Of a stretch of DNA of 64,000 nt, positions 13,642-60,977 are shown in pieces. The notes under the pieces were generated by a model. The model did not search any database. It saw nothing but the letters and a program-made list of their open reading frames with translations, and was not told the DNA's origin. Source of the stretch: a virus; the IMG/VR virus record IMGVR_UViG_3300027844_002282; one strand, written 5' to 3'. The position numbers and the translations under genes are program-made. How positions within the stretch are numbered: the stretch's first letter is position 1; every line of letters starts with the position of its first letter.

Positions 13642-13705
13642 ATTAATCCCTCCATTAGATTGCAATTAATTATTGATTCAAAATCAAACCAACATTAATT
13701 CCCCT

Positions 13706-13733
13706 ATTCTTAAATGCTCAACGATTTCCCTCT
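13706..13733 (-). promoter_or_regulatory. Putative late promoter AGAGG-N18-AGAAT
   Basis: Recurrent motif. Confidence 0.55.
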
Positions 13734-13755
13734 ATAAAGAGAGAATAATTTCTAT

Positions 13756-14514
13756 CTACTGAACTTCCACAATGCCGTTTTCATAAACGGTAGCAAAATA
13801 ACCAACGAAGTTTACACCATCTATATCATAGTCTGAAGACGAATTGATCGTTTCGTCAATGGTTAAATCTATAGGGCTTTCTTCCTCTAAAGTATATTCT
13901 GTATCGTGAATATACAAAAGACTCCATTCACTTGATAAATTAAGCTCTGAAATCGTATTTAGAGGTGTTATATGAAGATTCGCCACATCATCAGAATAAA
14001 TAAAGTTTGAAACGCCGTCTTCTGTCCAAACTTGAGACCCCTTAGATTCATAAAATCCTGGAGACGTGACTGTTACAGATGCTATTCCGGTAAACAAAGA
14101 CAGTTCTTCTCCGTCGAGGTTTATATCTGATAGGATAAGCCCTCCACCACCCCCAACAAAAGATAAAATGTTGGCCCTAATGAGAGGGGAGAGATTGTTG
14201 TCTATCCCAAAAAACAACACCGCGTCGAAACCCTGAATATATTCAAGTGTTGAGAGATCTTCGATAGCCCCTCTCGTAACATTTATATCATCTACATTAT
14301 CTACGATACCGACACTTCCATCATCTACGCCATCCACTATCACTAATGCATTTATTACCCCCTCGTCGCTTATTGATGATGCGAACTGGAAGCACCTCTC
14401 CACCAATGATGGCGGAAAAGAGGCGTTGTCTGTATTAATATTTGCAAATCGGCTGCAAATTAACAGAATATTACCTTGCTGATAGTCTAATGATGATATA
14501 ATTGAAAATTTCAT
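13756..14514 (-). CDS. Hypothetical structural protein
   Basis: Likely start MKFSII; last gene of a tightly packed tail-type block. Confidence 0.6.
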   Translation of the reverse strand: MKFSIISSLDYQQGNILLICSRFANINTDNASFPPSLVERCFQFASSISDEGVINALVIVDGVDDGSVGIVDNVDDINVTRGAIEDLSTLEYIQGFDAVLFFGIDNNLSPLIRANILSFVGGGGGLILSDINLDGEELSLFTGIASVTVTSPGFYESKGSQVWTEDGVSNFIYSDDVANLHITPLNTISELNLSSEWSLLYIHDTEYTLEEESPIDLTIDETINSSSDYDIDGVNFVGYFATVYENGIVEVQ

Positions 14515-14515
14515 G

Positions 14516-15490
14516 TTAGTCCAATACGTTATCCGAATCTGCACCAAGCAAAAACGCTATTTCCTGTACTACTGGAACGCTAACGTCGCTATAAGACGAT
14601 AGTTTTATCCCTACTTTGACCGAGCTTCCCCATGTGGTTGAAAGATCTTCCACTTTATCAAGATCAATGATCTTATAATCCTGCCAATTGGAACTGTTCC
14701 CGCTCGTTACCCCAAATCTTATTTCTGTATTTTCAGGTATAGATGTGGATGCGGTCAAAAGCATATCGTCTACATTTGAATTCTTTTCTATCTTTATCTT
14801 CCTCGTGAAGAAGAAAACAGAGTGTTTTCCGCCATAGGTTATTATGAATTCACTAACTATTGGGTTCTCAATGGTTGTTTCTGTTTCGAGATCTACCTTA
14901 AACATCATGAATCTGCCTTTAAGGTTGAATCTATCCAAATCTTTATTAACAACAAACGTGCTTGGCAAGGCATATCCGCCATAAGCGACTTCGGCCTCTT
15001 CTGAAATGTAATACTCCCAATCTTTTGCAATAACATCCGCCTCCGTCTCGGCTACCTTGAGCGCCACAACGACTCTTCCATGACTACTATTTTGTGTCCA
15101 TGTTATAGACTTCCAGAATCCGAAGTCTTCATCGGCTTTAAGAACGTCAGATGTATACACAGCCGTAGCCCTGGTGTTTTTTGACACTCTAAACGAATCG
15201 GTATTCTCTTCTATAATATCGAACCCGGTGCCTATTCCACTCGACTTTACAATAGCGTTGTACAGATCATAATAAATAGAAGTGTTTGCTACGGATGAGA
15301 TGTCGCCCTCTCCATTAACGATCTGAGCGAACACATAATTAAGGCCTTTACCGAACGGGTTTATTGGAAGCTCGTTAATATTACTTACCACGCCTTCCTC
15401 TGAAAATATAAACACTTCTCCCGCGCCATGAAAATATTTCACGTCGGTTATGTTCCCATTTTGGGACTTAAAAATTGGTCTGAAACTCAT
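14516..15490 (-). CDS. Putative tail/baseplate structural protein
   Basis: 324 aa, beta-rich (FGFWKSITW, GRFMMFKVDLET..NPIV). Confidence 0.55.
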   Translation of the reverse strand: MSFRPIFKSQNGNITDVKYFHGAGEVFIFSEEGVVSNINELPINPFGKGLNYVFAQIVNGEGDISSVANTSIYYDLYNAIVKSSGIGTGFDIIEENTDSFRVSKNTRATAVYTSDVLKADEDFGFWKSITWTQNSSHGRVVVALKVAETEADVIAKDWEYYISEEAEVAYGGYALPSTFVVNKDLDRFNLKGRFMMFKVDLETETTIENPIVSEFIITYGGKHSVFFFTRKIKIEKNSNVDDMLLTASTSIPENTEIRFGVTSGNSSNWQDYKIIDLDKVEDLSTTWGSSVKVGIKLSSYSDVSVPVVQEIAFLLGADSDNVLD

Positions 15491-16419
15491 TATAAATAAT
15501 AAACCTGGTCAAGTTTTCCTGGTCTAACGCTATATCCGCTATCGTTAACAATTACTTCGTCTTCCTCGCCAAGGAATAGTTTCCCTGTCGAAGTGTCAAA
15601 GCCAACGTATATAAAACTACCATAATTCAAGCTTTCTGACAGGACATACCCCTGTGTTAATATGCCATTGAATATTCCAGCTCCGTCTGTACTTACCCCA
15701 CCCTTTTTGACAAACTTGCCGGATGATACGAGCATCAATCTCGACACAAACGTTACCGGTGTGAAAACATCTAAAGAAACTGGTGGTGAAGATACGATAA
15801 GGGTTCTGTCTTCGTCAAAATACCACTTCAAAGTGAGCGAAAATAACATTGTTAGAACGCCATAATTTCCAGTGTCTATAACCGACTTGTTAATCGACGA
15901 GCCAGGCGATATTGTAGAGGCGGAAATAGCAAAGGGGGTATTATAATCGCTTGAGTATGTAACGTCGCAGCTTAAAGACGGATAGTACGATGTCCCTGAC
16001 ACAACTTCAGCATCAAATTTTGACAGTCCGCCTGACACATATATCGATATATCAGTATCGTCGAAGTCCCATGGCGTTTGTCTTAGGTCTAACGCCTCTC
16101 CATTGTTTGCACTTTTAGACGCGACCTCGTCTAACCAGGACTTCATACTAAATTGAGAGGTAAATACACTTGTTGAGTCGGGAATTATCTCATACAAGAG
16201 CTTCTTCCCATCCCCAACGTATCCAATAAACTCTTCATCAGAGTGGTCTATATCTAATAAGAAGTCCCCATCAGTCTTGTAGAACGCTCTCTTTATAGTT
16301 TTGGTTCCGGTTTCAAGAAACGTCACCGATGCGGTTTGGCTCTCCACAAGAGAAAGGTTCCTACTACCTATTTCAAATGGAACTGGATACTGTTCTGGGT
16401 CTTGGACTAAATTAATCAT
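15490..16419 (-). CDS. Putative structural protein
   Basis: 309 aa, coupled to its neighbours. Confidence 0.55.
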   Translation of the reverse strand: MINLVQDPEQYPVPFEIGSRNLSLVESQTASVTFLETGTKTIKRAFYKTDGDFLLDIDHSDEEFIGYVGDGKKLLYEIIPDSTSVFTSQFSMKSWLDEVASKSANNGEALDLRQTPWDFDDTDISIYVSGGLSKFDAEVVSGTSYYPSLSCDVTYSSDYNTPFAISASTISPGSSINKSVIDTGNYGVLTMLFSLTLKWYFDEDRTLIVSSPPVSLDVFTPVTFVSRLMLVSSGKFVKKGGVSTDGAGIFNGILTQGYVLSESLNYGSFIYVGFDTSTGKLFLGEEDEVIVNDSGYSVRPGKLDQVYYL

Positions 16420-17218
16420 TTGCCCCCTCCATTATATAAACCATGTCATCTACGGCCACCAAAAGCTGGTCTGCCCCAACGACATCAAGAGATCGTATCT
16501 TCTCGCCTTCCCACTGTCCTGCGATCTTCACATCTGTCCCGTCATATTCATAGAGATTACACCTGTTCTCCGGGGCAAAGTAAAGCTTATCATCAAATGA
16601 TACTGCACAGGAAAACGAGACATCAAAGTTTTCGTTCTTTTCAAGAGTAGCCAAGGATGTTGTGACCTTTGAAAATGTTGAAATAGAGAAAAAATCATCC
16701 CCATCCTTTAGCATGGACCAGCCACTCGAATTCAAAACTGGAATAGACTCTATCCCCTCGACAAAAACATATAAAGAACCCCCATGAGAAACCATTGCTT
16801 TAATCCCCCCACCATATGCGTCATACTCCATTCTCCAATCAGTTCCGTCAAATGATAATATTAGCCCGCTCGGAGAAGTCCCAGCATAAAGTTTGTTATC
16901 ATGAACTTCGAATGCTGTTACTTTGTAATCTCCAGTGGTTACATAATGGAATCTATTTCCAGTGTTGAAATTGTGCATCATTATCCTACCATTTGGAGAG
17001 GTTCCAACGAATAAGGCGTTTCCATAGTCGGCAATCGCCGTGGCATACATGTCTCCCACCTTGTAAAACTCCAAATTAGATGTCCCGTCAAGGGTTCTAT
17101 AAACAATACCCTCTGGACCGGTCCCTACATATAGGTATCTACCAAAAACATGGGTTGATTGAATAACTCTGTTATCAACTGATTTATACTTGGCTATGAT
17201 TGTTCTTGTTGTAATCAT
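16412..17218 (-). CDS. Beta-propeller repeat protein
   Basis: Repeated LYVGTGPEG / LFVGTSPNG / LYAGTSPSG blades. Confidence 0.7.
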   Translation of the reverse strand: MITTRTIIAKYKSVDNRVIQSTHVFGRYLYVGTGPEGIVYRTLDGTSNLEFYKVGDMYATAIADYGNALFVGTSPNGRIMMHNFNTGNRFHYVTTGDYKVTAFEVHDNKLYAGTSPSGLILSFDGTDWRMEYDAYGGGIKAMVSHGGSLYVFVEGIESIPVLNSSGWSMLKDGDDFFSISTFSKVTTSLATLEKNENFDVSFSCAVSFDDKLYFAPENRCNLYEYDGTDVKIAGQWEGEKIRSLDVVGADQLLVAVDDMVYIMEGAND

Positions 17219-18978
17219 TATATTTTCGCGGCCTCAAATGTTTTATCTTGATAATCAGTTGGGTCTCTATCCGAGCCCGAACCATTAAAATCAAAGTAAG
17301 AGGAGTTCTCTCCTCCTCCAGAAAGATCCACATTTCTCTTATCAACCTTATACGCACCATGTCTCAAGTCTGTTACAGTAATATTATCAACTGAAAAGTC
17401 AGCGGTGAAGCCCCCTACAATACTCGCGCTAACACCTTCGTTTCTTGCGGTCGCAGAAAACGTCCCGTTAAAATAAACGCCACTATCATAGTCGAAGCTC
17501 AAAATATTTATTCCAGGATTACTAACTCTATTTACCATCGCTCTAAGATTAGTATTGTCTATTGCCACAAAACTATCCTGGTTATACCCTCTTCTTACGT
17601 AGATTCGATCTATATTCACCATTATATTAGAGGAGAAATTAGGCTCGAAGGCTTTATTGAATGAGTACACTCTTCCATCAGAATACGCCGTTACTATATC
17701 CCTTGTGTTTACATTTAACCCAAACCCAACGAACCCAGATGATAAAGTTAGGGCCTTAATAACAGCATTGCCTCTAACCACATATATCTTTTGATCATAT
17801 GGAGAGTGGACATAAACGTCTCCATTGATGGCGACCTCAAGATACCCAGACCTACTTATTGGTTTGTTTACCAATAAGTTTCCGTCTGAGTCATAATGTC
17901 TAATCCTATTATAGCCAACATCCGAAACCCAGCAAGATCCATCGAGTCCCAATTTTACAAATCCCGGATTGCTGAATCCAGAAGAAATGGTAAAGACAGT
18001 ATTCATATTTTCATCAAGCTTCACCAGACTTGTCTTATTAATCACCCAGACGCCATCACAGGTTGAATCGTCATAATATAAAGACTTTGGGTAGTCCAGA
18101 CCATCCTTTTGTATAAGGGCTATCGATTTTGGTTCTTCAAATAAATCTGACTTGGCTGATATTTTTGATCTGGTAACATCAAACTTCATAACCCGACCAG
18201 CCTTGTATCCGTCCCCAAAATATGAAGAGAAGTATATGTCACCTGTTATGTCACAAATCTCAAGACATGATTCCGAATCGGCGAAGCATTTTATTTCCTC
18301 AACAAAAGTGGGGCCTTTATATAACCCATTGCCAAAAAACAAGCTCCCATTTTTCCCAACCAAAACCGCTTCATCAAGACTAAATCTAAAGTGGGTTAGG
18401 CTGGACACCGAATCGTTTTTTCCAACAGGAACATTTGAGTAGGTAACTATATCGTCGATATTACACTGTAGGTTAAAATCTACGGTCTTCGAGTCAAGTG
18501 AGAAGAAATCCAAGTCAGATATTGTCTCTGAATATATGTTAAAATTACCAGACGCTGTACATTCATCGTTAACAAATATAGCCATAGTTGCGCCTGACCC
18601 AAGAATTAAACCTGAACTATCCCAATAAAACTCAACGATGAATGACGTGTCTGAAGATATTGACGTTTTAGTATCGACTATTACAAACTTTCCATTTCGA
18701 GTCCATAATGTAAGAATTATTCCTTCGTCTGACAATGAAGCGTAAACCCCTGGGAAGTCGATAAATTGCGCCTTCTGGTTAGTTCCGAACAAAATATAAT
18801 CTGTAAGATACTTCTCACCATCGCATAAAGCATACACCCCATTTGATATGGCGTTTGGAAGAGTTAATTGTAATAGGACCCCTCCAGACGAAAACGTGAA
18901 CAACTCTGATGCGTCATCATTATAAATGAACGTGTCAGAGTACTCAGTCTTTTTAATACTGTTTTTATTTGTTTCCAT
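17218..18978 (-). CDS. Putative tail/baseplate protein with NHL-like propeller
   Basis: 586 aa; FSNPGFV..DGSCWVSDVGYNRIRHYDSDG is an NHL-like repeat. Confidence 0.6.
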   Translation of the reverse strand: METNKNSIKKTEYSDTFIYNDDASELFTFSSGGVLLQLTLPNAISNGVYALCDGEKYLTDYILFGTNQKAQFIDFPGVYASLSDEGIILTLWTRNGKFVIVDTKTSISSDTSFIVEFYWDSSGLILGSGATMAIFVNDECTASGNFNIYSETISDLDFFSLDSKTVDFNLQCNIDDIVTYSNVPVGKNDSVSSLTHFRFSLDEAVLVGKNGSLFFGNGLYKGPTFVEEIKCFADSESCLEICDITGDIYFSSYFGDGYKAGRVMKFDVTRSKISAKSDLFEEPKSIALIQKDGLDYPKSLYYDDSTCDGVWVINKTSLVKLDENMNTVFTISSGFSNPGFVKLGLDGSCWVSDVGYNRIRHYDSDGNLLVNKPISRSGYLEVAINGDVYVHSPYDQKIYVVRGNAVIKALTLSSGFVGFGLNVNTRDIVTAYSDGRVYSFNKAFEPNFSSNIMVNIDRIYVRRGYNQDSFVAIDNTNLRAMVNRVSNPGINILSFDYDSGVYFNGTFSATARNEGVSASIVGGFTADFSVDNITVTDLRHGAYKVDKRNVDLSGGGENSSYFDFNGSGSDRDPTDYQDKTFEAAKI

Positions 18979-28060: not shown

Positions 28061-30496
28061 CTATACTGTTTCAAAAAATTCCGGCTGCTCTTTAACTACT
28101 TTTGCATGTATTTCTTTCAATTTTTCAAGGCCGTATTCCTTTAGCATGTATTCTCCGTCAGGGCCGTAGCCTATGATCTTCTCATATTCATATGCCAATC
28201 TCTTTTCAGAAACCTTCGCGCCGTCAAACAATAATTCTTTATTTCTATGAATCGACTCATCAAGCTCTGGGTCTATAGAATATCCTCTAAGGTTTAATAT
28301 GATCGCCCTCGTAACCATGAGCGGATTAATCGGGATAACAACGTCTGGGTTGAGGATCGGTCTAACAATCTTGGCCTCAATATCATCCATGGCTTTTCCC
28401 GTTATATCGTAGATATTATTGTCAATAAAACTATAAAGTAGACTATTGACGGTAAAGTCTCTGGCATACACGTCTAAGTGAATTGGGGTCGTTGAGATAT
28501 TCTCTTCTCTCATAAGCGGTCTTACACCCTCTGTGAAAATACGTTTTCCACGAAAGTCCATCGATACGCCTTCATACTCATAACTCATCGTTCCAGTTCT
28601 TTGGCTAAATCCGATATCGACAATACCAAGATCTGCCGCAAGAAGACCGCCAAGTTTTTGAACGTTCTCGACTACCGGAGATGTGAAATCAAGATCGTTA
28701 ACCTCAAGGAAATTCTTTGTCGTTGCCAATGTTCTTGGGAATCCACCAACTACGAAACAGTCTTCTATCCCATATGTCTGTGATAATATCTTACACTTAC
28801 TAAGTATCTTATTGATTGTTTCCTTAAGTCTTCCCTGAAGGTTAACAAATGAGTTTACACGATCAATGTTAGATCCAGAGTTTACATTGTCCTCAATTTC
28901 TTTAATATCTTCTAAGTCTTCATCCCCAGTAATCCAAACTACAACTTTATCCTTGAGATTGTCATTCTCAAATATTGCATACGGAAAATCTCCTAATGCG
29001 TCAACAACATGAGGTAAAGCGTCTTCATGAACAATCAGCCTGGCTACATTTATCTTTTTTGACAAAACCATCTTCTTATAATACCCAACCCTTCTCAATA
29101 TTTGAACAATATAATTCTTAGATTCGTTATCTGTCACATTATAAAGAGAGTTGCCAACTGCCCCAGCAGTACCAAAATCGGATCGGCCAGACCAATAAGT
29201 ATCTCTATCGTTCCACTTCTCTGGTCTATTCCTATGTTCTGGTGAAGCAAGGTCAATCTGGATATCATTTTTCCAGTAAGATCTACCAAATCTATCTTTG
29301 GCTATTTTACCCCTACCGTACCTTTCATCATATCTTCTCATCCAATATCTTCTGTCTGAAGATTCTCCGTCGTAATATCCATGGGTGTCAGAAATATCAT
29401 CAGCCTCAAATGGCTCTCTCCAACCCGCATTAAATCCATTTAGATATCCAAAGACGCCACCAATATGCGGGCCACCAACGTTACTTCTCCATGACGCGAA
29501 CTTAATAAGTTTATTTGTCGATGCCGCTTTTTGAATAGGAATAATCAAAGCGTGAGGAAGCTTGTCCATTAACATTTTCTCTAACGTTACAGACTCTGTC
29601 TCAGCAACCCCCTTCTCTTTCCTTTCTTGAGTAAGGTTTTCCTCACAAGTTTTATCTCCCGATTCGTCACCAGTGTGAAGATTGTTTTCAAGAAGGGTTT
29701 CCACTGAGTCATACTTTGTCCCTTCGGTAGCGAATTCTTGAAAGTTAACCTCTTGATTGGATCTCAACACTGTTTCAATTAGACTCCACTGGAACGGGGC
29801 GATCTGAGCCTTCCTATACCAACTATTTTCATTTGAAGCGTGAGTCATTTCCCCTGTCGTTTCAAAAGGCAGGTTAAACCTATTCATCCCCCAAGAAAGA
29901 AGGGAATTTTGCAACTCTTGACATGGGCCTTCGTCCCCACCTTTGGCATGTAAGGCTTCGTGGGCAATAATGGAAGCTAACTGAACTTTTCGAAGGTTGT
30001 TCTTATCATCCTCGGTAATCGTATCTGGATCGGAGTCCAAAATCATTTGGTCAGTAATATCCATGATTCTTGCAATATCGATGCCAATAACGCTTCCACC
30101 TTCAGATTTTTTCTTTTCAAAAAGTCTTCTCATCTCTTCTGTCACTTCTTCTGGATCTTTATCTGGAGAATATGCATATAGAAGATCACTTTCTGAAGGG
30201 CTCTCTGGAATATTAGTTACATAACCAGATCTTTCAAGCTCTTTCTTAACCCTGACCCAATCAACTGTTTCGTTCAATGATGGGTTGAAAACCCCGAATG
30301 CATCTACATCAGTAGAATTGTAAATGTATGCTACATTTTTCAACAGATCTCCCCCAGCAAATTCGTTAACTAACGAAACAGCCTCGGAAGCGCCGGGGAA
30401 TCTCCCGGAAATTTCATCAGAATTAACATTTCCTGAGCCTACGTTCTGCTCAATTGTGTCAACCTTCTGTTCTATCTCTTGCAATTCTGGATTCAT
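28061..30496 (-). CDS. CCA-adding / poly(A) polymerase family nucleotidyltransferase with long N-terminal extension (HEXXH domain plus repeat linker)
   Basis: CFVVGGFPR...NDLDF...ARDFTVNSL class II nucleotidyltransferase head motifs; IAHEALH near the N-terminus. Confidence 0.8.
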   Translation of the reverse strand: MNPELQEIEQKVDTIEQNVGSGNVNSDEISGRFPGASEAVSLVNEFAGGDLLKNVAYIYNSTDVDAFGVFNPSLNETVDWVRVKKELERSGYVTNIPESPSESDLLYAYSPDKDPEEVTEEMRRLFEKKKSEGGSVIGIDIARIMDITDQMILDSDPDTITEDDKNNLRKVQLASIIAHEALHAKGGDEGPCQELQNSLLSWGMNRFNLPFETTGEMTHASNENSWYRKAQIAPFQWSLIETVLRSNQEVNFQEFATEGTKYDSVETLLENNLHTGDESGDKTCEENLTQERKEKGVAETESVTLEKMLMDKLPHALIIPIQKAASTNKLIKFASWRSNVGGPHIGGVFGYLNGFNAGWREPFEADDISDTHGYYDGESSDRRYWMRRYDERYGRGKIAKDRFGRSYWKNDIQIDLASPEHRNRPEKWNDRDTYWSGRSDFGTAGAVGNSLYNVTDNESKNYIVQILRRVGYYKKMVLSKKINVARLIVHEDALPHVVDALGDFPYAIFENDNLKDKVVVWITGDEDLEDIKEIEDNVNSGSNIDRVNSFVNLQGRLKETINKILSKCKILSQTYGIEDCFVVGGFPRTLATTKNFLEVNDLDFTSPVVENVQKLGGLLAADLGIVDIGFSQRTGTMSYEYEGVSMDFRGKRIFTEGVRPLMREENISTTPIHLDVYARDFTVNSLLYSFIDNNIYDITGKAMDDIEAKIVRPILNPDVVIPINPLMVTRAIILNLRGYSIDPELDESIHRNKELLFDGAKVSEKRLAYEYEKIIGYGPDGEYMLKEYGLEKLKEIHAKVVKEQPEFFETV

Positions 30497-48952: not shown

Positions 48953-49028
48953 GCGGGTATAGTTCAATTGGTAGAGCAATAGGTTTCCAACCTGTCTGTT
49001 GTCGGTTCGAATCCGACTACCCGCTCCA
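48953..49028 (+). tRNA. tRNA-Gly(TCC)
   Basis: Cloverleaf, ATAGG-TT-TCC-AA-CCTGT, CCA. Confidence 0.9.
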
Positions 49029-49030
49029 CT

Positions 49031-49132
49031 CTTGAAGGGGCTCCCGATTCTGAATATCAATGTAGGTGAGCCAAGTGGCGGATCGTGATTCAGCATGATC
49101 AAGTGGTGCCCAATCACCACCCTTCAAGACCA
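49031..49132 (+). ncRNA. tRNA-like RNA ending ACCA
   Basis: 8-bp acceptor-like stem CTTGAAGG/CCTTCAAG, three internal hairpins, no TTC T-loop. Confidence 0.55.
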
Positions 49133-49286
49133 TTTTTAATCACAACTGTTAAAAGGTTATATTATGGTAACGAAATGTATAAAAATAGTGGTGTTGCATG
49201 TTTGCTCTGATCGATCTATCTAATCTAAAATTGCCAGACATATCGACATTTATGGAAATGCACTCGAATAAGATCGAGTCAACGTT

Positions 49287-49458: not shown

Positions 49459-50277
49459 ATGAAAACTTACTGCATAATCGGTGCCTACGAGTATAATGGC
49501 AGTGCTCGTGATGCGATAGTCGAATACTTTTGTATGCAGGGGGTCGATGGCTTGGTTGTCGTTGATCATAGAAGCCAAAGACCGGCTAGCGACGAGATAG
49601 GGAATGCCGATGCTTGGATGTATCTATGCAGTGCTGCCTGTTCTGCTGGGATGGAGGTGATTTTTCAGTATCACGAATTACCGCGAAGCATAGACCAAGG
49701 ACGAATCGAGAAGATCGTGTCTACTGGGTGCGGCAAGATAAGTATCGGGAGCGCAGAAACTACAGAATGGGTCGGCTCTCACGAGTTGGCGGAAGAAAAC
49801 ATTGAGATTGGCAAGCGCATGGGTTTCGAGTGGGTGTGCGGCATAACGCCGAGGACGATCCTAATGGATTTACTTACTCGTAAGCGGAGAGAAGTTCTCG
49901 TCAGGAATAATGTCTTGTGCCTTACCCTTTCTCCCTATATCCTGTGGGGGTATATGTTTGCTGACGAGCGATTCCCCCATCAATGGGAAACCACGCTGGC
50001 GGGAAAGAACCTTCATGTCGAGTACGGTCTCACGCCGGAAAGACTTGCTGACTACGTTGAGCCACTTGACATAATGGCGGGAGTGGGATCACAGGTGGGT
50101 CTTGATGCCGGTAGCGCAGTATATGCCAAGATGTTAAACTTCAAGGGTTTGGTGATCTCGCTGCCGTTCGATCTGACGGGTGTGTTCGACACCTCAGTAA
50201 GAATGTCGCCTCCGGGCAGCTACCCGACTATTTGTGGGAATTTTGAAGAGGGAGGATACAGGAATGCCTATGCGTGA
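49459..50277 (+). CDS. Hypothetical protein, possible TIM-barrel-like enzyme
   Basis: 272 aa with alternating beta/alpha pattern; overlaps the next gene. Confidence 0.55.
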   Translation: MKTYCIIGAYEYNGSARDAIVEYFCMQGVDGLVVVDHRSQRPASDEIGNADAWMYLCSAACSAGMEVIFQYHELPRSIDQGRIEKIVSTGCGKISIGSAETTEWVGSHELAEENIEIGKRMGFEWVCGITPRTILMDLLTRKRREVLVRNNVLCLTLSPYILWGYMFADERFPHQWETTLAGKNLHVEYGLTPERLADYVEPLDIMAGVGSQVGLDAGSAVYAKMLNFKGLVISLPFDLTGVFDTSVRMSPPGSYPTICGNFEEGGYRNAYA

Positions 50278-51238
50278 CGGGATCGTGCTGAGATTTATTC
50301 CGGGGGTCACTTATTCTGTCGTCATTTTTCATATTGGTCACATGACCACGATGATGTGCAATTTTCTTTACGCGAAAAAGCATCATGGTATCTGCTATAT
50401 TGCGCCAGAGATAAGTACAATCGGGTTAAACGGAGCGGGGTTTATAAGACCGTACCTGTCGATAAGTGGCTATCGAACAGATACTTCTCTCAGGCTGTTT
50501 GGTAATCTGGGTATCCCGGAAGTACTGATAAGACCGATTCCAACATACTGGGGTGGCTTAGAGCTACGCCAAGAGATGAGTAAAAAACTTCATGCAGAAA
50601 CTGGAGCATCGATTAGCCAAATATTGGATGAATTCCCGAAGGCTGATATCAGTAGTTCGATAGTCGCTGTTTTTGATTTTCTCTTGGGGTCGAATGTCAT
50701 AATTCGCGGTGGTGATTGGAAGGGCATTGTAGATCCCCATATCCGTGCTTCGACTTATGTAGAGACCCATCGAGCGATCCTAAATTATTTAAGAGGGATA
50801 GTCGGTCAAGGTCCGATTACGGAACACTTCGCACCACTAGTTCTTTCGGACGGAGAGAAGATATCCAAGTCAGCCATTGCTGACATGGGAGAAGACCCCG
50901 TAGTAGTATTCCGAGAAGGGGGATGTTCGACGGAAAATGCCCCCGGAATTTCCCCTCTGGCGTATCTGGTATGGATGGCTGGAAAGGTTGGAGAGGATCT
51001 TAGGTCGATTGATGATTTTGTCAATTATTATCAGCTTTTCGACATCGAGGCTGTTCCGGAAGAGCTTGATTTTGTATTGGATGACCTGCTCAATGCCGAC
51101 GAGGTTGTCAAAAAAGCGTTCGGTCATACATCGAGTAGCGGCGATGACTTGGTGAAACACCTTGCTGTTTTCAGCGATGCTTTAGGGGTTAGTCGGGTCG
51201 ATGGCGTTTACGAGGATACTATAATTTGTAATTTTTGA
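50264..51238 (+). CDS. Minimal glutamyl-tRNA synthetase-like (GluRS/GluQ-RS-like) catalytic domain protein
   Basis: VLRFIP...FHIGH...NFLYAKKHHG, IIRGGDW, PLVLSDGEKISKS are GluRS HIGH, IRGED and KMSKS equivalents. Confidence 0.7.
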   Translation: MPMRDGIVLRFIPGVTYSVVIFHIGHMTTMMCNFLYAKKHHGICYIAPEISTIGLNGAGFIRPYLSISGYRTDTSLRLFGNLGIPEVLIRPIPTYWGGLELRQEMSKKLHAETGASISQILDEFPKADISSSIVAVFDFLLGSNVIIRGGDWKGIVDPHIRASTYVETHRAILNYLRGIVGQGPITEHFAPLVLSDGEKISKSAIADMGEDPVVVFREGGCSTENAPGISPLAYLVWMAGKVGEDLRSIDDFVNYYQLFDIEAVPEELDFVLDDLLNADEVVKKAFGHTSSSGDDLVKHLAVFSDALGVSRVDGVYEDTIICNF

Positions 51239-51454
51239 ACTTTTACAGAATGCATGGGATGAGCCTATTTCAAAGGTGGAAATAGAATTGTCCCCTGTGG
51301 AAAATAAGGATGCATCATCTATCCTGATTATAAAATATGCATAAATACTTTGAAAATGTTGGCGAAACCGGAAGTCATGACTCAGTGGAAACCCTCCGGT
51401 AACTCTCACCGACAGAAAACAAGAGAGCAATAGGCCTGGGCGGGAAAAATAGAT

Positions 51455-51532
51455 GCAGACTGTAGTGTTAGTAGCTCAGCACACTTGATTGTGGCTCAAG
51501 TAGGGGCGGTTCGAATCCGCTCAGCCTGCCCA
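51455..51532 (+). tRNA. tRNA-His(GTG)
   Basis: G-1, CTTGA-TT-GTG-GC-TCAAG, C discriminator, CCA. Confidence 0.85.
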
Positions 51533-51549
51533 TCTTTTGCTGTATAATA

Positions 51550-51636
51550 TCCAGTGTAAACCGTAATGGCAGCGGAACGGACTGTTAATCCGTGACATTT
51601 TATGTCCTGTAAGTTCAAGTCTTACCTCTGGAGCCA
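51550..51636 (+). tRNA. tRNA-Asn(GTT) with long variable arm
   Basis: ACGGA-CT-GTT-AA-TCCGT; extra GACAT-TTT-ATGTC arm; GCCA. Confidence 0.8.
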
Positions 51637-51646
51637 ATTTTATAAT

Positions 51647-51721
51647 AGGTCTGTAGCTTAGTTGGAAGAGCTACTGTCTTCTAAGCAGTTGGTCCGGGCT
51701 CGAATCCTGGCAGGAGCGCCA
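51647..51721 (+). tRNA. tRNA-Arg(TCT) with damaged acceptor stem (possible pseudogene)
   Basis: ACTGT-CT-TCT-AA-GCAGT; first three acceptor pairs mismatched. Confidence 0.6.
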
Positions 51722-51819
51722 GTCGCTCTATACGTCTCGTACCAAGCCGAGTGCAAACGGTTGGGATGTACCCGCAAGGGAAATTTTGCAACCGGATGGT
51801 ACCCGGCTGGACGAGCGCA
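51722..51819 (+). ncRNA. Double-pseudoknot structured RNA
   Basis: Five stems plus two 6-bp long-range pairings (see findings). Confidence 0.6.
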
Positions 51820-51827
51820 TTTTATTT

Positions 51828-51904
51828 GCCCCCGTAGTTCAATTGGATAGAGCAATAGTTTTCTAAACTATCTTGTGTAGGTTCGAGTCCTACCGGGGGT
51901 ACCA
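51828..51904 (+). tRNA. tRNA-Arg(TCT)
   Basis: ATAGT-TT-TCT-AA-ACTAT, CCA. Confidence 0.9.
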
Positions 51905-51915
51905 TTTCTCAAAGA

Positions 51916-51989
51916 GGGTCCGAAGCATTAAGGTGAGGCAATGGGTTTTTACCCTATGGAACAGGGATCATTACCCTGCGGGCCTACCA
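51916..51989 (+). tRNA. tRNA-Lys(TTT) with atypical T-loop
   Basis: ATGGG-TT-TTT-AC-CCTAT; T-loop ATCATTA; ACCA. Confidence 0.75.
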
Positions 51990-52003
51990 ATTTTCAAAAC
52001 AGC

Positions 52004-52031
52004 TTGACTTTTTTCAAAAGCAGGTTATAAT
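52004..52031 (+). promoter_or_regulatory. Sigma70-like promoter TTGACT-N16-TATAAT
   Basis: Immediately upstream of a tRNA cluster. Confidence 0.7.
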
Positions 52032-52044
52032 ACACTTAACAGAT

Positions 52045-52116
52045 GCCTACGTAGCTCAACTGGAAGAGCACTTCGCTACGAAGAGGTTGCAAGTTCAAAC
52101 CTTGCAGTGGGTACCA
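52045..52116 (+). pseudogene. tRNA-Arg(ACG)-derived gene with a 4-nt anticodon-arm deletion
   Basis: CTTCG-CTA-CGAAG where CTTCG-CT-ACG-AA-CGAAG is expected. Confidence 0.65.
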
Positions 52117-52120
52117 TTTT

Positions 52121-52265
52121 GATAATGTGGCGGAATTGGAATACGCGCCGCTGTAATAGCGGTAGAGAGCAATGGGTTCAACTCCCATTTAAGGTACGGT
52201 TACCGCTTGGCTGTAATAGCTAAGGCAATGTCTCCTTGTGGGTTCGAGACCCATCATTATCATCA
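52121..52265 (+). ncRNA. Double tRNA-Leu(TAA)-like RNA with two anticodon arms and two T-arms
   Basis: GATAATG/CATTATC acceptor, Leu-type D-arm, GCTGTAATAGC twice, T-arms with TTCAACT and TTCGAGA loops. Confidence 0.7.
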
Positions 52266-52709: not shown

Positions 52710-52837
52710 ATAATATCCGTAATTATCATCAAATATTTCTTCGCCCCATCGGTCTTGAAATATCCAAAAGAGGAGGTGTCGATAATACACAAGGAAATTC
52801 CATGGTTAATACACGATCCCATTAATTTTCGAATAGG

Positions 52838-52954
52838 TTGTGACTAAGGCCCGGTAAAGCCGGGTGCCGATCACTTACTAAGGCCTCAGCCCGTAAGTGC
52901 CGGGCGGGAACACAGAGGCTCTACCCCCGAAGATAACCAAACTTTGAGTCACAA
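52838..52954 (+). ncRNA. Structured RNA with probable kissing loop
   Basis: TTGTGACT/AGTCACAA closing stem; CCCGG/CCGGG; CACTTAC/GTAAGTG; loop GCCTC can pair with GAGGC. Confidence 0.5.
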
Positions 52955-53002
52955 TACTTTTTCCTTGGAGATAATATGGAAGATAAAATACACCCGCTGG
53001 TT

Positions 53003-60670: not shown

Positions 60671-60868
60671 ATGCTAAGTAGAGAGTTCCTGTTAGATTTA
60701 GAAAAATGTTGTGGCAGCGGATGCTTTAACTGCCCATATGACCCAAGGCACACGAGAGGGTCAGAAAAAATTTCAAAAGACGCCCCTGTAGTTCAATCGG
60801 AAGAACAGTTGCCTTCGAAGCAATCGCGTCCGGGTTCGAATCCTGGCAGGGGTACCAATAACGATTAA
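60671..60868 (+). CDS. DUF5522-like small Cys-rich protein whose 3' end runs through a tRNA
   Basis: LSREFLL...CCGSGCFNCPY. Confidence 0.55.
   Translation: MLSREFLLDLEKCCGSGCFNCPYDPRHTRGSEKISKDAPVVQSEEQLPSKQSRPGSNPGRGTNND
60782..60857 (+). tRNA. tRNA-Arg(TCG)
   Basis: GTTGC-CT-TCG-AA-GCAAT, ACCA. Confidence 0.9.
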
Positions 60869-60977
60869 TCTGGATTAGGGAGCCAGTTGAATGCCAACTT
60901 CCCAAGGACGGGCGTTGAGGAATCCTCAATAGCTCTTACGAGAGCGAATCCTTGTTAAAAACACGTCGCCATTTTAC

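Follow-up and report, generated by a model that had tools for sequence, protein, structure and literature searches.

The non-random signal in the 98-nt element at positions 51722-51819 is a single long hairpin, rather than the compact set of pairings that an earlier note had described there, and at least two more closed spacers that fold well accompany the element in the tRNA island of a giant phage. Throughout, "the window" denotes the whole stretch of DNA analysed, 64,000 nt in length. Our preferred reading, which we hold tentatively and at close to an even chance, is that the element is a transcribed structured spacer of a polycistronic tRNA operon, acting as a processing, insulating or stability module. 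It is most likely an orphan hairpin spacer of a kind known from phage tRNA and stable-RNA operons, with both a ribozyme and a double pseudoknot unsupported.

An uncultured marine giant phage is the source of the window; among deposited phages it is closest to Bacillus phage G, with 34% identity between the two portal proteins. The tRNA island occupies the plus strand from ~48.8 kb onward, where ARAGORN called 13 tRNA genes and Rfam returned 17 tRNA-type matches, along with several non-tRNA folded spacers. U-rich trailers follow every tRNA of the island, after the CCA ends. The genome has ~41% G+C, and its unstructured spacers range from 20 to 40% G+C. Around the element, the features are as follows:

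51647..51721, plus strand: tRNA-Arg(UCU)-like gene (Rfam tRNA, 44.5 bits, model positions 5-66 only; no ARAGORN call)
51722..51819, plus strand: the element, a 98-nt structured spacer with a G+C of 0.57, between two tRNA-Arg-type genes
51820..51827, plus strand: U-rich trailer UUUUAUUU, 7 U in 8, read from the sequence; similar tracts follow the CCA of neighbouring tRNAs
51828..51904, plus strand: intact tRNA-Arg(UCU) (ARAGORN; Rfam 63.7 bits)
51899-904, 52111-116, 59341-346 and 60852-857: GUACCA ends of four Arg-type tRNA genes (UCU, ACG look-alike, CCU, UCG)

We noticed several peculiarities elsewhere in the window. ARAGORN placed a tRNA-Asn(GUU) of 87 nt at 51543-51636. By eye, its variable arm (GACAU-UUU-AUGUC) is long, and one U.U mismatch interrupts its 7-bp acceptor stem; such a class II shape is uncommon for Asn. 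The tRNA-type gene at 52045-52113 (Rfam 47 bits), which ends in GUACCA, carries an anticodon region CUUCG-CUA-CGAAG (i.e., a 5-bp stem over a 3-nt loop holding part of ACG) and looks like a non-decoding tRNA look-alike. Just ahead of it, within the island, lies a near-consensus promoter-like site at 52004-52031 (TTGACT, 16 nt, TATAAT), and the island probably comprises several transcription units. An 811-aa protein encoded at 28061-30496 on the minus strand has a poly(A) polymerase / CCA-adding head domain (PF01743, E = 3e-9), which fits with the heavy investment of this phage in tRNA handling.

A selected, transcribed RNA structure is suggested by the 57% G+C of the element, its flush position, the U-rich trailer, the lack of an intervening promoter-like site and the presence of two similar spacers in the island. 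The G+C content, similar to that of the surrounding tRNAs, stands well apart from the genome average. The element lies on the same strand as at least 13 tRNA genes, begins 2 nt past a CCA end and ends 8-10 nt ahead of the next tRNA. Because the promoter scan returned no promoter-like site between the element and this tRNA, the two are probably co-transcribed. A coding sequence was rejected as not credible, since the only open reading frames across the element, of 62 and 65 aa, each overlap the flanking tRNA genes. The other closed, well-folding non-tRNA spacers lie at 49026-49135 (z = -3.55) and 52836-52956 (z = -3.07); a third candidate at 60868-60975 folded no better than shuffles (z = -0.47). 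At the end of the spacer at 49026-49135, CCA and a U tract come after a 10-bp closing stem.

The element had been placed between two tRNA-Arg genes, which holds for the downstream gene; the upstream one is only tRNA-like. ARAGORN does not call it, and just 4 of the 7 acceptor pairs form (5' AGGUCUG against 3' CAGGAGC), leaving the three outer pairs unformed, although the D, anticodon and T arms are intact and the gene has a GCCA end. By comparison, a perfect acceptor stem is present in the tRNA-Arg(TCT) of Synechococcus phage S-WAM2, to which the gene is ~80% identical. We consider the upstream gene either a pseudo-tRNA or a repurposed tRNA-like RNA.

The best fold of the 98 nt is a fully nested long hairpin of 29 bp, capped by GCAA, at -41.9 kcal/mol (z = -3.5; 1 of 200 shuffles). 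In the 114-nt context of 51714-51827, where a small flanking hairpin is added, the energy falls to -48.2 kcal/mol (z = -4.5; 0 of 200 shuffles). The spacer reading is favoured by these values and by comparison with the nested part of the previously described fold, which comes to only -28.4 kcal/mol. The parts of the predicted structure are:

51714..51728, plus strand: small hairpin GAGCG-CCAGU-CGCUC, in the minimum-energy fold of 51714-51827
51733..51766, plus strand: 5' arm in the minimum-energy fold, with bulges at U51735, A51741, A51745 and A51750 and with AAA 51755-57 unpaired
51771-80, plus strand: apical CCC-GCAA-GGG hairpin with a GNRA loop, common to this fold and the earlier one
51786..51817, plus strand: 3' arm in the minimum-energy fold, with uninterrupted pairing over 51804-51817

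The small hairpin is formed between the opening bases of the element and the 3' acceptor strand, with the CCA, of the tRNA-like gene; CGCUC(U), at the start of the element, is complementary to this strand. The small hairpin competes with the closing stem of the earlier fold. The minus strand folds equally well (-40.6 kcal/mol, z = -3.95), which leaves room for an inverted repeat at the DNA level. Furthermore, a z of -3.5 for a single 98-nt window is modest, and not overwhelming, within a 64-kb scan.

The earlier fold is a four-way junction in which a closing stem surrounds three hairpin arms and two 6-bp loop pairings are made, the whole being taken as an autonomous ncRNA. Besides the apical hairpin listed above, it consists of:

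51724-28 / 51813-17, plus strand: closing stem CGCUC / GAGCG
51731-38 / 51763-70, plus strand: helix UACGUCUC / GGGAUGUA, with two G.U pairs
51745-49 / 51758-62, plus strand: helix AGCCG / CGGUU, with one G.U pair
51792-95 / 51803-06, plus strand: helix CCGG / CCGG, with the 7-nt loop AUGGUAC
51752-57 / 51785-90, plus strand: pairing of UGCAAA, a loop in this fold, with UUUGCA
51739-44 / 51797-802, plus strand: pairing of GUACCA, a bulge in this fold, with UGGUAC within the CCGG / CCGG loop

All of the helices listed in the earlier note are present at the coordinates given there, amounting to 37 bp in 98 nt. Nevertheless, since the same segments are used in both, this fold and the long hairpin exclude each other, and we regard it as unlikely that the four-way junction is the native structure. 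In its favour, the three G.U pairs, which are its only strand-specific feature, tie it to the plus strand, and its local helices form first in transcription. The two other structured spacers also fold into a closing stem around three hairpins, and the two 2-nt linkers and closed ends recall the abundant tRNA-like RNAs of the island. However, its nested helices are no better than shuffles of the same 98 nt (-28.4 against -29.7 ± 3.5 kcal/mol), with a z of -1.5 for the sub-hairpin 51731-70 alone and +0.8 for the 3' half. The stacking of both 6-bp helices, estimated in part from nearest-neighbour values, would contribute ~-19 kcal/mol, which after the usual pseudoknot penalty does not beat the -41.9 kcal/mol of the hairpin: by this estimate, the earlier fold would be at best level with the hairpin and more likely ~9-14 kcal/mol worse. 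Folding of the growing transcript showed that its local helices are the minimum-energy structure only up to 51780 (z = -0.35). From 51795 onward, the minimum-energy structure at all lengths belongs to the long hairpin, first to its inner helix CGGUUG/CAACCG and then to the stalk as it closes outward.

The earlier note had also judged two perfect 6-bp tertiary pairings to be non-random, which our controls did not bear out. Counted in eleven control windows of 98 nt from this phage, perfect pairs of at least 6 nt that are not palindromic numbered 0-4 per window, with a mean of ~1-1.5 that is near the simple expectation of about one 6-nt pair per 98 nt; the 6-nt complements in the element are in line with chance. 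Self-complementary tetramers (GUAC and UGCA) underlie both pairings, GUACC is present three times in the element, and a third perfect 6-mer pair in the element is the CGGUUG/CAACCG helix of the competing fold. The double pseudoknot is therefore unsupported, its pairings being at the chance rate and unable to coexist with the nested hairpin, which is more stable.

A descriptor fixing both pseudoknot sequences was searched against three large collections and gave 0 matches in IMG/VR; GTDB genomes returned 2 and JGI metagenome contigs 4. Of these six, those that were read (L029, L032, L033, L034) are chance coding matches in ordinary sequence, with the other helices absent; in the remaining two (L030, L031) both strands match, as perfect palindromes do. 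That the four-way junction, whether native or as one state of a two-state RNA, represents a new compact RNA class is very improbable. If it were true, the internal GUACCA/UGGUAC would act as a mimic or a sensor of the GUACCA-3' end that the four Arg-type genes share, and a defective tRNA-Arg-like gene would be linked to the control or handling of real tRNA-Arg. Both this 3'-terminal hexamer and its complement do occur inside the element.

Next to these structural considerations, known RNA families offer no home for the element. A cmscan of 351 nt (51600-51950) against Rfam 15 gave no match on the element even at E ≤ 10, the only matches being two tRNAs and chance matches on the minus strand or outside the element, and a gathering-threshold Rfam scan of the window found tRNAs only. 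Neither ARAGORN nor Rfam recognised 51722-51819 as a tRNA: the 7-nt loop AUGGUAC is not a T-loop, and the element ends in GCA, not NCCA. We also rejected 1) a fragment of the RNase P specificity domain, for which only a 7-nt word is similar and Rfam gives no match, 2) group II intron domain 5, for which only an AGC/GUU 5-bp helix is similar, 3) an integron attC site or MITE, as there is no integrase and no second copy, and 4) a T-box, as the element has no specifier codon and is too small.

The earlier note had called the element a new ribozyme or structured ncRNA. The second half of this reading is reasonable, given the position in a tRNA operon, the lack of credible coding, the 57% G+C, the better folding than shuffles and the lack of an Rfam family; the first half is unsupported. 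A self-cleaving ribozyme that trims the tRNA 3' trailer, be it theta/HDV-like or of a new class, is exceedingly improbable. Its attraction is that a tRNA-type gene immediately precedes the element, the position also known for theta ribozymes (PMC10879173), and that the earlier fold loosely amounts to a nested double pseudoknot. On the other side, no ribozyme family of Rfam 15 was matched at E ≤ 10 in the 351-nt search, and the hammerhead core CUGANGA is absent from the element. HDV-like and theta ribozymes follow a nested double-pseudoknot plan, P1-P2-P3-L3-P3'-P1'-P1.1-P4-J4/2-P2', with a G1.U wobble at the base of P1, a cleavage site at the tRNA 3' end and the catalytic C as the first base of J4/2 (PMC10879173). 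Threading the element onto this plan by hand, we found that the helix order, the cleavage-site G.U and the position of P1.1 all disagree, and the element does not fit an HDV-like or theta ribozyme. The loop partner (51785-90) comes after the P4-like hairpin (51771-80), not before it; the loop pairing has 6 bp, not 2, and the P3-like helix 5 bp, not 3. The P1-like helix opens with the pair U51731-A51770 rather than G.U and starts 9 nt past the CCA, and an alternative P1 register from G51722 has only 5 pairs and leaves no room for P2'. ACCGGA (51791-96) does contain C residues, but the helix order leaves J4/2 undefinable.

Searches for relatives left the element an orphan. With blastn, the region 51400-52200 matched INPHARED phages in its tRNAs only, with nothing on the element, and IMG/VR yielded no homologue of the element by exact 22-mer or tRNA-anchored patterns. 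Covariance models of the earlier structure (R1) and of the hairpin (R2) found nothing below E = 1 elsewhere in the window with filters off, in 20 whole IMG/VR records or in ~100 phage tRNA-island loci (~1 Mb). Three contigs (L002-L004) are from the same phage and 100% identical to the window over 51640-51910; two more (L027, L028) are again the same phage, with the element unchanged and 1 SNP in 2.76 kb. Four sequencing runs gave only low-depth contigs over the region, identical to the window. An RNA-library contig spans 51505-51709 and ends before the element, and is thus uninformative on its transcription. Covariation cannot be measured, since there is no homologue and all copies of the phage are identical.

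This orphan status bears on whether the element is evolutionary debris, an inverted or partly duplicated remnant of a tRNA-gene rearrangement with no function of its own, which we hold to be distinctly unlikely. The broken acceptor stem upstream, beside the perfect one of the cyanophage relative, would suit such an origin, as would the repeats within the element (GAGCG-C(C)A at both ends, GAUG(G)UACCCG twice), the equal folding of the hairpin on both strands and the lack of a relative in every collection searched. However, 57% G+C has been kept in an AT-rich genome whose unstructured spacers are far lower, and the remainder of the island is densely packed with well-folding RNAs. The element is also identical in contigs from at least 5 samples, although its surroundings are equally conserved.

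Neighbouring genes have relatives of their own. The GluRS-like gene and its 272-aa partner (49459-51238) were found in other contexts without the tRNA block, in marine phage contigs with otherwise unrelated gene neighbourhoods: at 3522-4446 of L001 (85.5% nucleotide identity for the GluRS-like gene) and at 4001-5780 of L025, there with the 272-aa partner. This pair looks like a cassette moving between phages. Relatives of the RdgC-like gene reach at most 42% identity. A distant relative, L159, is syntenic, with glycosyltransferase, SMC-like and RdgC-like genes in the same order, and its RdgC-like protein is 34% identical. At 13688-17231, ~2 kb past this gene, L159 has a dense tRNA island (11 tRNAs in 3.6 kb), which indicates a conserved position of the island across this phage group. 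In the part of that island that is assembled, nothing matches the element.

The complementarity between the element and the tRNA-like gene raises the idea of a composite or switch, in which the tRNA-Arg-like body and the element form one unit and a stem with the U-tract acts as a partial terminator for the downstream tRNA-Arg. CGCUC(U) at 51724-29 has two possible partners, the tRNA-like 3' strand (across its CCA) and GAGCG at 51813-17. We consider this quite improbable. The three-way complementarity among GAGCG 51714-18, CGCUC 51724-28 and GAGCG 51813-17 is in line with it, and CGCUCU, as a complement of the acceptor GGAGCG, could substitute for the outer bases of the 5' strand, which are left unpaired. 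In either fold the last helix is G+C-rich and stops at G51817, with 7 U in 8 beginning 2 nt further on, and the UGGUAC loop is complementary to the GUACCA with which the four Arg-type genes end. Yet this reading draws on one sequence, from which design and accident cannot be told apart for either the CGCUC(U) or the GUACCA/UGGUAC complementarity. The terminator scan made no call, the loop being too large for its rule, and a terminator at 51820-27 would leave the next tRNA without a promoter. The tract itself is not special, as a U-rich trailer follows every tRNA of the island. In addition, bases 71-72 of a folded tRNA are not free for such pairing, and the element holds no specifier-like AGA codon.

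Returning to the structured spacer, we infer its transcription, its cleavage and its role, as follows. The RNA would fold mainly into one long irregular hairpin with arms 51733-66 and 51786-817, while the small front hairpin would tie up the CCA end of the defective tRNA-Arg-like gene. The double-stranded stalk could keep the folding of the two flanking tRNA-type RNAs apart, and might be a substrate of an RNase specific for double strands (RNase III type) or a barrier to 3' exonucleases. An RNase P cut at 51827/51828 would make the 5' end of the next tRNA and free a by-product RNA of ~100 nt. Against the spacer reading, no homologue or covariation backs the selection of any fold, and the stalk, with five bulges of which four are on one strand, is less regular than textbook RNase III sites.

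The tRNA islands of big phages also hold many unexplained folded RNAs, and sorting mere processing stalks from real RNA machines decides where bench work pays. The element is of low priority in this regard: it is well folded, but a plain hairpin explains it, and it is known from one phage lineage only. Were the alternative fold true, the element would represent a new small RNA with tertiary structure, linked to the handling of tRNA-Arg, which the data do not favour.

Among known systems, stalks of the RNase III type occur in polycistronic stable-RNA and phage transcripts, such as the leader-trailer stems of rRNA operons and the intergenic sites of phages T7 and lambda. Like them, the element is predicted to form a long imperfect double-stranded hairpin, non-coding and flush in a spacer between stable RNA genes that are probably co-transcribed, and its 29 predicted pairs over 85 nt agree with their length of ~two turns or more of double-stranded RNA. 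Unlike them, it has its bulges mostly on one strand and no sequence relative, and its apical GCAA hairpin with internal loops is more elaborate than textbook sites. The tRNA cluster of phage T4 encodes the stable small RNAs species 1 and 2 (rnaC, rnaD), non-tRNA molecules of ~100-140 nt whose function is unknown and which are presumably released by tRNA-processing enzymes. The element resembles these in being a non-tRNA RNA of ~100 nt among phage tRNA genes, but it is similar in sequence to no INPHARED record beyond the flanking tRNAs. Theta ribozymes are tRNA-associated minimal HDV-like ribozymes of gut phages (Kienbeck et al. 2024, PMC10879173). The element shares with them its position immediately downstream of a phage tRNA-type gene, and the earlier model is a nested double pseudoknot of similar size. 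This model differs in that the loop-3 partner follows the P4-like hairpin and pairs over 6 bp rather than 2, and in the U-A (in place of G.U) that opens the P1-like helix, while the element differs in a putative cut 9 nt beyond the CCA, an extra outer stem and no placeable catalytic C. The spacers at 49026-49135 and 52836-52956 are similarly ~100-120 nt long and G+C-rich, with a terminal closing stem and a z of ~-3 to -3.5; they share no sequence or covariance-model similarity with the element, and where their predicted structures are branched, that of the element is a single stalk.
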